A DNA stretch of 64,000 nucleotides from Escherichia coli (GCF_024502345.1 NZ_JALDNN010000001.1); one strand, 5' to 3'; positions 19,706 to 22,893 are shown, counted from the first letter of the stretch. Translations and numbers: made by a program. The notes: a model not told the origin generated them from the sequence alone.

Positions 19706-19746
19706 TTGCCGGATAATATAAAAAGTTATCCGGCAAATTATTTTTT
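19706..19746. terminator. bidirectional terminator between yggM and the TRAP permease gene
   Basis: ttgccggataa / ttatccggcaa stem, then T-run. Confidence 0.6.
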
Positions 19747-21046
19747 ACATTAGCCCTAGTAGCTGTGGAATGAACAAGGATATTTGCGGGATGTAAGTGA
19801 TCATCATCAACGCGATTAACAATGCGGCATAAAATGGCAGCAATGGTTTGATCAAATGTTGAATCTTCACACCTGAAATAGAACAACCAACAAATAGCGC
19901 ACTACCCACCGGCGGTGTTAACAGCCCAATACAAAGGTTAGCCACCATCATAATACCGAAATGTACCGGATCCATTCCCAGCTCTTGTGCAATCGGCAAG
20001 AAGATTGGTGTGAAGATTAGTACAGCCGGTGTCATGTCCATAAAGATGCCGATAATTAATAAGACGATATTAATCAGCAGCAATATGATCAGTGGGTTAT
20101 CAGAAATCCCCATCAACGCGTCGCTGATCATATAAGGAATATCAGCATTAGTCATTGCCCAGGACATGCCCACGGAAAAACCGATCAACAGTAATACAAT
20201 CGAAGTGGTAACAACCGACTCCAGAATCAGTTTGGGTAAATGGCGCCATTTTACTTCCCGGTAAATCAGCACCGAGAGAATAAATGTGTAGACAACGGCA
20301 ATTGCTGACGCTTCAGTTGCGGTAAAAATGCCGCCCAGAATGCCGCCCATCACAATGAACACCAGAAGCAAACTTGGTAAGGCATCCAGAAACGCTTTAC
20401 AGGCCTGAGCAAAGGTTGCTCTTTCTGAAAGTGGGTAGCCACGGCGTTTAGCAATAATGCCGCAGACTATCATTACCGCGAGACCCATTAAGATCCCTGG
20501 CAAATATCCCGCCATAAATAGCGATGCTACAGAAACGCCGCCAGCTGTCAGGGAAAACACAATTAACACGTTTGAGGGCGGTATCAGTAATCCAGTAATA
20601 CAAGATGAGACGTTTACAGCGGTAGAAAATGCCGGATCATAACCTTGTTTGGTCTGAATGGGATTCAGTGTGCCACCAACGGCAGCAGCTGCCGCAACGG
20701 CTGAACCGGAAATAGAACCAAACATCATATTCGCCAGGACGTTCACATGACCAAGTGAACCCGGAACCCGGCCAACCATTACCTGGGCGAGGTTAATCAA
20801 ACGTATCGCAATACCGCCGCTGTTCATCAGCGTTCCGGCAAAGATGAAAAAGGGGATTGCTAACAGGGCAAAGTTATCCAGTCCATTAGCCAGTCGCTGC
20901 GAAACAGTGATTGCCGCGATATCCCAGGGAAACATCAAAAGCATTGAAGCTACAGTGGCAATACCGATTGAGAACGAAATGGGCACACCAATAAAGACCA
21001 GCACAAAAAAACAGCCAAACAGTGTAATCGCGATATAACTATCCAT
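19745..21046 (-). CDS. TRAP transporter large permease, DctM family (433 aa)
   Basis: Polytopic membrane protein of typical DctM size; last gene of a PQM-ordered operon. Confidence 0.8.
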   Translation of the reverse strand: MDSYIAITLFGCFFVLVFIGVPISFSIGIATVASMLLMFPWDIAAITVSQRLANGLDNFALLAIPFFIFAGTLMNSGGIAIRLINLAQVMVGRVPGSLGHVNVLANMMFGSISGSAVAAAAAVGGTLNPIQTKQGYDPAFSTAVNVSSCITGLLIPPSNVLIVFSLTAGGVSVASLFMAGYLPGILMGLAVMIVCGIIAKRRGYPLSERATFAQACKAFLDALPSLLLVFIVMGGILGGIFTATEASAIAVVYTFILSVLIYREVKWRHLPKLILESVVTTSIVLLLIGFSVGMSWAMTNADIPYMISDALMGISDNPLIILLLINIVLLIIGIFMDMTPAVLIFTPIFLPIAQELGMDPVHFGIMMVANLCIGLLTPPVGSALFVGCSISGVKIQHLIKPLLPFYAALLIALMMITYIPQISLFIPQLLGLM

Positions 21047-21558
21047 TAACTGGCCTCCTGCGCAGGTTGTTTCAGTTGTTGAATGCTTTGATTAATAAAA
21101 CACAAGGCATAAAACATCATCACCAATCCACTTAATGGCAGAATGATATATACGTATCCCATCGGTATTTGCATCGCGGCAGATACCTGTGATGTTGCCA
21201 GCGTTTTATCAATTAATTTCAGGCCACCAGTCACAATGACCGAACCGGCAAAACCTAAAATAAGAACGTTAATGACTATACTAAGAAGTAATTGCTTGCG
21301 CTTATTCAGGGCGAGAGCAAATAAATCGATAGAGAGATGTCTCTGCGCGCCGACGGTATATGCAGCACCTAATAACCCTACCCAGATCATCAAAAATCGT
21401 GCCAGCTCATCGGTTAATGTACTTGGCTGGTTAAGTACGTAGCGGCTAAATACTTGCCAGACTACGCATACAACCAGAGCAAGCATGACGGCGACAGAAA
21501 ACGCGGCAATGACGCGGTCTACCGCAAGTTTCAGGCGGTTAAATATCATTGTAAGCAT
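21046..21558 (-). CDS. TRAP transporter small permease, DctQ family (170 aa)
   Basis: Four-helix hydrophobic protein, 1-nt overlap with the large permease gene. Confidence 0.75.
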   Translation of the reverse strand: MLTMIFNRLKLAVDRVIAAFSVAVMLALVVCVVWQVFSRYVLNQPSTLTDELARFLMIWVGLLGAAYTVGAQRHLSIDLFALALNKRKQLLLSIVINVLILGFAGSVIVTGGLKLIDKTLATSQVSAAMQIPMGYVYIILPLSGLVMMFYALCFINQSIQQLKQPAQEAS

Positions 21559-21593
21559 CCTGGAAAATCAGGGCCAGAGACTGGCCCGGAATA

Positions 21594-22580
21594 TTATTGA
21601 GCAGCGTTGTCGAACTTCTCTAACAAAGCAGCTTGTTTTGGATCTTTTTTGAAGTCGTCAAACAGAGGCTGAACTGCGGCACGGAATGGTGCTTTATCCA
21701 CTTTTACAATTTCACCCCCCATAGCTTTCGCCTGAGCACGTGTGTCAGCGTCAATTTTTTCCCACAATTTTTGTTGATAAGCTTCGGATTTCTTCGCCGC
21801 TGTTTCGAGGATTTGTTGCTGTTCTGGGGTTAATTTATTCCATGTTTTGGTGGAGATAACCAAAAAGTCAGGAATTGAGGCGTGTTCATCTTCAGAAAAA
21901 ACTTTGGCAATTTCAATATGTCGAGCCTGCACCCAGGAAGGCACGTTATTTTCTGCGCCATCTACTACACCTTGCTGCATCGCAGTATAAACTTCGCCAA
22001 ATGAAATTGGAGTGGGTGAACCACCCATCAGTTCAATCATGTTGATGGTGGTCGGACTTGGCTGAACACGAATTTTCAGTCCCTTAAGATCTTCTGGCTT
22101 TGTAATCGGTTTTTTCGCATAGAAACTGCGAGTACCCGCTACATAAGCTGATAAAGCAAAAAAGCCTTTGTCTTTTGTTGAGTCCATAATTTCTTTACCA
22201 ACTTCACCAAAAACAACTTTGTTGAAGTGCGCCTGATCTTTAAATAAGAACGGCAAATTATAGATAGCATAAATATTATCAAAAGACTCCAGATCACTGG
22301 CGGAACCTTTGGTCATATCCAGTGCGCCATTTTGCAACAATTCCATAGTTTCTCGCGCATTACCCATCTGGCTGCTGGGATAAATACGGATCACCATATT
22401 ACCTTTTGACAGCTGTTTTACCTCTTTCGCCAGCTCTTCAAAACTCTGATGTACAACATGACTTCTTTCCAGGTTGTGTGCTAACTTTAACGTCACTTTT
22501 TCTGCGGCGTTTACGCCAGTGCTAACCAGAGCCAGCAAGGATGCGCAGACTAATGAGCGGGTAAATGACCTCATTTTCAT
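21594..22580 (-). CDS. TRAP transporter substrate-binding protein, DctP family (328 aa)
   Basis: Signal peptide; DctP-like size; first gene of operon. Confidence 0.8.
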   Translation of the reverse strand: MKMRSFTRSLVCASLLALVSTGVNAAEKVTLKLAHNLERSHVVHQSFEELAKEVKQLSKGNMVIRIYPSSQMGNARETMELLQNGALDMTKGSASDLESFDNIYAIYNLPFLFKDQAHFNKVVFGEVGKEIMDSTKDKGFFALSAYVAGTRSFYAKKPITKPEDLKGLKIRVQPSPTTINMIELMGGSPTPISFGEVYTAMQQGVVDGAENNVPSWVQARHIEIAKVFSEDEHASIPDFLVISTKTWNKLTPEQQQILETAAKKSEAYQQKLWEKIDADTRAQAKAMGGEIVKVDKAPFRAAVQPLFDDFKKDPKQAALLEKFDNAAQ

Positions 22581-22865
22581 AAAAAAACTCCCTGTTGAAG
22601 GATGGAAATTGGTTGATATCTAATTGTGCTTATCAGTGCTTTGTGCGACAAATTGGTTAACCTGTCCGACAACTTGTCTATGTTTATCACAACTTGAAAT
22701 AAAGTCAGAAATTAAATATTAAATTTGTGCGCCAGGTTGTACATGTTTATAATCAATAAATGATGAGTAAATATTCACTAGATATATATAATAAATATCG
22801 TAGATATTTATTCAGTAAGAAATATATTTTGCCGAAGTTAATTAACGGGGGGGGTAAAAGAAGTG

Positions 22866-22891
22866 ATTAATGCGCCCGCAGGCGCATTAAT
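22866..22891 (-). terminator. perfect 11-bp-stem hairpin 2 nt after hemW stop
   Basis: attaatgcgcc cgca ggcgcattaat, followed on the minus strand by cacttctttt. Confidence 0.5.
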
Positions 22892-22893
22892 GA

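Follow-up and report, generated by a model that had tools for sequence, protein, structure and literature searches.

A TRAP transporter operon between yggM and hemW

We analysed a 64,000-nucleotide stretch of Escherichia coli DNA (GCF_024502345.1, NZ_JALDNN010000001.1; hereafter the window) in which three intact, co-oriented open reading frames (ORFs) occupy positions 19745-22580 of the minus strand, between yggM (18682-19689, plus strand) and hemW (24030..22894, minus strand). ORF analysis identified them as an operon for a DctP/DctQ/DctM transporter of the TRAP (tripartite ATP-independent periplasmic) class, and profile scores above the cut-offs bore out the proposal of an earlier note on this DNA that the operon is complete. 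The first gene (22580..21594, minus strand) encodes a DctP-like periplasmic substrate-binding protein of 328 amino acids, scoring 283 bits against PF03480 and 285 bits against TIGR00787; its N terminus is a hydrophobic leader ending in ...GVNA/AEK, which we took by eye as a signal peptide. A DctQ-like small membrane subunit follows (21558..21046, minus strand), with 170 amino acids if read from the ATG at 21558 (PF04290, 105 bits) and 167 from the alternative ATG at 21549 that RefSeq homologues in E. coli A34 and ST131 use. The last gene (21046..19745, minus strand) specifies a DctM-like large permease of 433 amino acids (PF06808, 404 bits; TIGR00786, 471 bits), and its ATG overlaps the dctQ stop codon as TAATG, suggesting translational coupling. 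Because all three proteins exceed the Pfam and NCBIfam cut-offs by a wide margin, the product is almost certainly a DctP-type TRAP transporter, and uptake would be binding-protein-dependent and driven by an ion gradient, as this class predicts.

The segment between the flanking genes (19690-22893) has a guanine-plus-cytosine (GC) content of 43.2%, compared with 50.7% for the window, in agreement with the lower GC that the earlier note had reported. The AT-rich upstream region described there corresponds to the spacer between hemW and dctP (22581..22893, minus strand), which is 313 bp long, has 32.3% GC and holds both the hemW terminator and the regulatory region of the operon. No known RNA element was found by Rfam in 19500-23100.

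At the other end, a hairpin at 19705..19737 (plus strand), with a stem of 12-13 bp followed by TTATTTTTTA, lies 7 nucleotides from the dctM stop codon. Its T-run is on the yggM (plus) side only, with none on the minus strand; it is therefore a canonical terminator for yggM and, for dctM, a hairpin without a U-tract, so its previous description as a bidirectional terminator holds in the yggM direction alone. The hemW intrinsic terminator (22866..22891, minus strand) has an 11-bp stem followed by CACTTCTTTT. Between dctP and dctQ, a GC-rich hairpin, GGGCCAGTCTCTGGCCC then TGATTTTCCA (21571..21587, minus strand), could act as an attenuator or as an mRNA stabilizer favouring the binding-protein transcript. 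Just past the hemW terminator lies a homopolymer (22847-22854; G8 on the plus strand, C8 on the minus strand) whose length differs among strains, being 8 in the window, 7 in strain A34 and 12 in A30, and which TUM10828 lacks; in Salmonella a C6 run occupies a comparable position.

Relatives of the binding protein and the candidate substrate

Three independent lines, namely solved relatives of the binding protein, its binding-site residues and the gene neighbourhood of related operons, suggest that the transporter probably takes up hexuronates, and promoter operators matching an ExuR/UxuR motif learned from other promoters point the same way. D-galacturonate and/or D-glucuronate would be the most likely of these. 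The earlier note had called the substrate unknown, and it can now be narrowed to probable hexuronates.

The top 14 sequence matches of DctP in the PDB belong to a single set of TRAP binding proteins from the Enzyme Function Initiative (EFI), with E values of 3e-68 to 9e-50, and the next tier falls to about 149 bits or less. An AlphaFold2 model of DctP, with a predicted local distance difference test (pLDDT) score of 93.8, adopts the two-lobed alpha/beta fold of binding proteins, and its 16 best fold matches in Foldseek come from the same EFI set (template modelling (TM) scores of 0.86-0.88, root-mean-square deviations of 1.6-1.8 Å). The best matches in both sequence and fold are the hexuronate-binding proteins Bamb_6123 (4N15/4LN5), a Xanthobacter protein (4OVR), Bpro_3107 (4MHF/4MIJ), 4X8R, 4N8Y and Apre_1383 (4N91), which share an Arg-Arg-Asn triad with DctP but come from hosts of other phyla or classes. 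They also differ in sequence, the N-terminal loop HNLERSH and the GNARE segment of DctP contrasting with the GSEKD-type segment of 4OVR and 4N15. The EFI matches beyond 4N91, 4MHF, 4N15, 4N8Y and 4X8R are presumed to be hexuronate binders. Published ligands cover these five: 4N91, 4MHF and 4N15 bind D-glucuronate, or glucuronate and galacturonate (PMC7660916), 4N8Y is galacturonate-bound and 4X8R is glucuronate-bound (PMC11668362).

The same comparison bears on whether the operon might instead encode a DctPQM transporter for C4-dicarboxylates or a second copy of YiaMNO. YiaMNO, K-12's sole TRAP system, has the same three-component architecture but another locus and another substrate (2,3-diketo-L-gulonate). 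The names attached to the operon genes in RefSeq, like the family names in Pfam and NCBIfam, are generic and would suit either identity. Both seem most improbable. Sialic-acid SiaP and C4-dicarboxylate DctP score far below the EFI set, the DctP structures 9DSY, 9DTL and 9HT3 reaching only E values of 1e-31 to 1e-33 compared with 1e-68 for the hexuronate binders, and the equivalog models for YiaM (38 bits against a cut-off of 260) and YiaN (296 against 800) fall well short.

Residues R151, R171 and N211 of DctP are conserved, with R171 invariant in 72 homologues. If a numbering offset of +1 is assumed, they are the counterpart of the triad R150, R170 and N210 that holds the carboxylate and ligand in STM3169, a glucuronate binder of Salmonella Typhimurium (PMC7660916). 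Ligand contacts in STM3169 are made by N35, Q36, E74, R150, R170, N210 and D237 (PMC7660916), and under the same assumed offset DctP has N36, R151, R171, N211 and D238. As numbered in the paper, N35, Q36 and E74 of STM3169 do not agree with the H35/N36/L37 and A75 found both in the window DctP and in the hemW-linked Salmonella protein P0007.

Gene context provides the third line. The nearest outgroup clade, consisting of Aeromonas rivuli, A. molluscorum and Pantoea sp. IMH (loci L054-L056), has a binding protein 59% identical to that of the window, with DctQ and DctM at 54% and 74%. The layout in this clade is ygjV-uxaA-uxaB-uxaC <> dctPQM-exuR, which is that of the K-12 exuT locus with the TRAP system where exuT would be; the window operon, in contrast, stands alone beside hemW. 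More distant relatives, at 52-55% identity, adjoin uxaA, a uxaC-like gene, uxuB, uxuA or a mannitol-dehydrogenase-family gene. In Pantoea sp. IMH (L056, 1473-14800), the exuR-linked TRAP/uxa cluster lies directly upstream of yggS-yggT-rdgB-hemW. It borders the conserved block of genes that the enterobacterial operon borders too, but from the other side, which could be due to chance or be left over from an earlier arrangement. No hint of a substrate came from the operon neighbours in Edwardsiella, Buttiauxella and a second Pantoea copy, among them a LysR regulator, adenosine deaminase, GH1 and LacI.

Several observations count against a hexuronate assignment and would be compatible with the same machinery carrying another sugar acid, such as an aldonate, 2-keto-3-deoxygluconate or a modified uronate, under a different FadR-type GntR regulator. 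DctP is only 30-38% identical to the solved hexuronate binders in Foldseek; two of the seven contact positions of STM3169 differ, with L37 for Q36 and A75 for E74 under the assumed offset (PMC7660916); and neither in E. coli nor in any hemW-linked locus does the operon have a regulator or a gene of hexuronate catabolism linked to it. We nevertheless regard another sugar acid as unlikely, given that the close characterized relatives are hexuronate binders (by published ligands for five and presumed ones for the rest), that in the nearest outgroup clade the transporter genes lie within uxaCBA/exuR loci and that, as described below, a motif trained on ExuR/UxuR promoters places a site of the spacer at or near the top in many genera.

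Hexuronate TRAP systems are already known, and this operon would be a further, uncharacterized one. STM3169-STM3171 of Salmonella Typhimurium is a D-glucuronate TRAP system with a dissociation constant (Kd) of about 0.2 uM, proposed as a high-affinity partner of ExuT (Herman et al. 2020, PMC7660916), and Salmonella LT2 has been described with only three TRAP systems (PMC7660916). Like the window operon, STM3169-STM3171 is an enterobacterial three-gene operon without linked catabolic genes, but STM3169 is a paralogue at another locus and not the orthologue of the hemW-linked DctP. Judging from the gene numbering, presumably none of the LT2 systems lies at hemW. GaaPQM of Agrobacterium, cited as a genetically characterized galacturonate TRAP system (Zhao and Binns 2016, cited in PMC5812351), belongs to another bacterial class and is regulated differently. 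ExuT, the K-12 hexuronate transporter of the major facilitator superfamily (MFS), would share the proposed substrates, repressor and downstream pathway, but is a single-component proton symporter of an unrelated family and a core gene in all strains. The TRAP system of strain BEN2908, which we also considered, is a different accessory system, sited at ygiQ..ftsP. We found no accessible paper on this locus that ties an E. coli TRAP system to ExuR or hexuronates, and an earlier assignment to the hexuronate regulon is possible.

A conserved promoter spacer and its candidate regulators

The segment encodes no regulator gene. A search for a linked regulator, which the earlier note had suggested, likewise yielded none in the hemW-linked loci, and control probably falls to an unlinked core repressor, ExuR/UxuR. 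The spacer contains two TGT-N3-ACA palindromes, Boxes A and B, 21 bp apart, together with two copies of AAATTGGTT. Box A (22658..22676), a candidate operator for ExuR/UxuR (GntR proteins of the FadR type), reads CAAGTTGTCGGACAGGTTA on the minus strand with the core TGTCGGACA at 22663-22671. Box B (22637..22655) reads CAATTTGTCGCACAAAGCA on the same strand, with the core TGTCGCACA at 22642-22650 and the consensus ATGTCATACAG in other genera. Only seven copies of TGTNNNACA occur in the 64 kb, two of them in the spacer at the 21-bp interval, and two of the four copies of AAATTGGTT in the window also fall within these 313 bp. Between the two boxes, a uxuA-like site, GGTTAACCAATTT on the minus strand (22650..22662), shares 13 of 14 positions with TGGTTAACCAATTT, an operator-like site of K-12 uxuA. 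Closer to dctP, Box C (22606..22621; AGATATCAACCAATTT on the minus strand) is kept as AGATATnnACCA in hemW-linked loci and includes the second AAATTGGTT half-site. A conserved AAAAnTGTGA element (22687..22691, minus strand) is a possible CRP half-site. The right half of a full CRP site at this place is poor, only the TGTGA half being conserved, and a full site was not retained.

Motif scores were obtained with two models. A position weight matrix (PWM) built from hand-picked K-12 ExuR/UxuR sites was replaced by a palindromic motif learned by expectation-maximization (EM) from hexuronate promoter regions of K-12 (five) and Aeromonas (two), with the window left out. No operator consensus came from the accessible literature on UxuR and ExuR. 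The EM motif recovered AAnTTGT-N3-ACAAnTT in every training region; its best match in the 64-kb window is Box A, and 3 of its top 14 matches in the window fall in the 313-bp spacer, compared with about 0.07 expected. In 19 of 23 hemW-linked orthologous loci scanned, a counterpart of Box A at -94 to -99 from the dctP ATG ranked first to fourth. The dctPQM loci of A. rivuli, A. molluscorum and Pantoea sp. IMH also have similar ATGT-N3-ACA/ACCAAT boxes upstream of dctP. With the ExuR/UxuR motif, a site inside dctP, AATTTCTTTACCAACTT at 22187-22205, equals Box A in score (13.6 and 9.8 bits); it may be an internal operator or match by chance.

An alignment of promoters from 29 taxa recovered five conserved elements: AAAAnTGTGA, Box A (AGnTGTCnGACAAC), a GATAAT -10 hexamer, Box B (ATGTCATACAG) and Box C (AGATATnnACCA). 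Of these, the TGTGA element and Boxes A and B were retained even where the operon is not beside hemW, and the operator boxes are also conserved among E. coli alleles. The GATAAT hexamer is present in most genera, aligned at the position of GGTTAACCAATTT, and is degenerate in Escherichia, Salmonella and Citrobacter. Where it is present, Boxes A and B flank the -10 on both sides and the spacing of TGTGA fits a class II CRP site, an arrangement from which we infer the repressor/activator layout typical of sugar-acid operons.

Control by ExuR/UxuR seems a slightly better prospect than not, and we infer from the motif comparisons that the repressor would be ExuR and/or UxuR rather than another FadR-type protein. 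Several points pull the other way. The operators in the spacer score 11-13 bits, compared with 15-22 bits for the training sites, and the hand-picked PWM ranked them seventh to ninth in the window, a weaker result that still counts after the change of model. TGT-N3-ACA is a generic core of the FadR subfamily, and a different GntR-type regulator, such as DgoR or LgoR, is therefore possible; this core and the moderate operator scores also fit the reading with another sugar acid. In addition, the E. coli spacer is without the GATAAT -10 hexamer of other genera, and a simple sigma-70 scan of the spacer found no strong promoter. The candidate hexamers TTGTCG-17-CACAAT were dropped because they are not conserved in other genera.

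Distribution, ancestry and a proposed role

As the earlier note had proposed, the operon is absent from this position in K-12: MG1655 has only 154 bp of repetitive extragenic palindromic (REP) sequence between yggM and hemW, and no TRAP genes there. Alignment to other E. coli, which the note had recommended, showed that 1,460 of 5,426 complete genomes (about 27%) contain 80% or more of the segment, its position, a few extra copies apart, always being the yggM-hemW locus; the closest match to the window reaches only 98.7-98.8% identity. Carriers include O25b:H4-ST131, O111:H8/NM, O103:H2, O45:H2, O6:H16 and O169:H41, and non-carriers include K-12, O157:H7 and an O8:H8 strain. Empty sites (L001, L010, L011 and L012) are 64, 154 or 242 bp long, depending on the number of REP units, and no remnant of the operon was visible in these four spacers. 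Contigs labelled as metagenome-assembled genomes (MAGs) of Collinsella sp. and a Bacillota bacterium, one of which (L013) includes hemW too, have the operon with proteins 99% identical to those of E. coli and look like mis-binned E. coli contigs. A 332-bp contig labelled 'Oceanobacillus' matched at 86%.

Beyond E. coli, hemW is followed immediately downstream by the operon in Klebsiella variicola and some Salmonella enterica. In a scan of species representatives, hemW and the operon were likewise neighbours in Escherichia sp. MOD1-EC7003, in five Citrobacter, seven Kluyvera and a further seven Klebsiella species, as well as in Pseudocitrobacter, Pluralibacter, Phytobacter and another enterobacterium, so that synteny with hemW extends to at least eight genera. 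Orthologues at 80-86% identity are found away from hemW in Buttiauxella, Hafnia psychrotolerans, Edwardsiella, Mangrovibacter and Enterobacillus. Nucleotide identity between E. coli and each genus is 70-82% for the TRAP genes and 74-85% for the flanking core genes, and in all 21 hemW-linked loci tabulated the TRAP identity is no higher than that of the flanks. Because the operon is syntenic with hemW in at least eight genera and as diverged as the flanking core genes, it is very probably an ancestral enterobacterial locus that was lost in K-12; the direction of change, loss rather than gain, would follow from this distribution. Against Salmonella, the ratio of non-synonymous to synonymous substitutions (dN/dS) in the TRAP genes is 0.03-0.06 with synonymous sites saturated, which indicates strong purifying selection.

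The low GC of the segment (43% against 51% for the window), its patchy distribution in E. coli (27% of genomes over several lineages) and a left border that coincides exactly with the yggM stop codon could also be read as the marks of an islet that the ancestor of the carriers acquired horizontally, by insertion at a yggM-hemW junction like that of K-12. A sharp divergence in the flanking gene would fit such an insertion as well. The last 46 nucleotides of hemW (22894..22939, minus strand) contain 14 synonymous differences between carriers and non-carriers, with the protein unchanged, and their linkage to the operon is complete among six carrier-derived E. coli (five carriers and the A30 remnant described below) and four non-carriers. 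These 14 sites are not accounted for by a simple deletion and so count against the loss scenario in its plainest form. Escherichia sp. MOD1-EC7003, however, is a carrier with a hemW tail mostly of the non-carrier type, and upstream of the tail hemW is a mosaic of haplotypes unlinked to the operon. This pattern points to old haplotypes that would have moved between lineages by homologous recombination.

Other observations render an islet improbable. The same position is occupied in at least eight genera, and in no genus does TRAP identity exceed that of the flanks. Synonymous sites are saturated in the comparison with Salmonella, and the synonymous divergence (dS) among E. coli carrier alleles, 0.04-0.12, is comparable with that of hemW in the same comparisons. 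No mobility genes (integrase or insertion sequence) were found among the ORFs of the segment, no tRNA in 12-30 kb and no direct repeats at the borders. Finally, in Salmonella and Klebsiella, too, the GC content of the TRAP genes is below that of their flanks, which suggests that low GC is a property of these genes rather than evidence of a recent arrival. The low GC of this locus and its absence from K-12 are thus most likely explained by loss from K-12, not by an island gained by non-K-12 strains.

The other flanking gene, yggM (18682-19689), has changed far more quickly than the genes around it. It has 63% protein identity to its Salmonella homologue and a dN/dS of 0.115, compared with 0.03-0.04 for the flanks; identity drops to only about 35% for the homologue of Klebsiella and Kluyvera, and the gene is missing in several genera. 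Its GC content, 44.5%, is also low.

Decay of the operon in E. coli is visibly ongoing, through independent events. IS1 (an insertion sequence) lies within dctP in two strains, the IS1-affected strains being SMN197SH3, DLI.6n and A30; in A30 (L065) an IS1-associated deletion has left 98 bp of the TRAP-side spacer, and yggM is also gone from its position. These disruptions, the absence of the operon from 73% of genomes and an E. coli promoter without the GATAAT -10 conserved elsewhere raise the question of whether the operon is a decaying remnant without current function in E. coli. We consider this very unlikely. The three ORFs are full length in all six E. coli/Escherichia loci inspected (A34, ST131, O111:H8, TUM10828, MOD1 and the window), dN/dS among E. 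coli alleles is 0.00-0.14 where computable, and the operator boxes are kept among these alleles.

Taken together, the operon is best explained as a hexuronate TRAP transporter, repressed by ExuR/UxuR and long resident at the hemW flank, a reading to which we assign a probability of roughly 0.6. According to this model, the periplasmic binding protein would capture the sugar acid and pass it to the DctQ/DctM membrane unit, which would import it by means of an ion gradient. Carrier strains would gain a high-affinity hexuronate route beside the core MFS transporter ExuT, and the imported hexuronate would feed the core UxaCBA/UxuAB pathway. The unlinked core regulator ExuR, possibly with UxuR, would repress the operon through the two TGT-N3-ACA boxes and the AAATTGGTT half-sites, with possible activation by CRP at the conserved TGTGA element. 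In Enterobacteriaceae the operon would have long occupied the 3' flank of hemW, with about 27% of complete E. coli genomes keeping it and K-12, O157:H7 and most of the rest having lost it.

Hexuronates are carbon sources in the gut, where they derive from dietary pectin and host glucuronides, and galacturonate sensing through ExuR reportedly affects virulence-gene control in enterohaemorrhagic E. coli (EHEC) and Citrobacter rodentium. It is possible, although on balance doubtful, that the operon is an unrecognized member of an ExuR/UxuR-CRP regulon that would give ST131 and non-O157 EHEC (O111, O103 and O45), but not K-12 or O157:H7, high-affinity scavenging of galacturonate/glucuronate, and that it also represents an ancient presence/absence polymorphism, found in Salmonella too, whose E. 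coli haplotypes are marked by the hemW tail. The locus exemplifies how low GC combined with absence from K-12 can reflect loss from K-12 and not gain elsewhere. If the proposed function is correct, a strain-variable, high-affinity importer would alter which E. coli lineages use or sense hexuronates at low concentrations.

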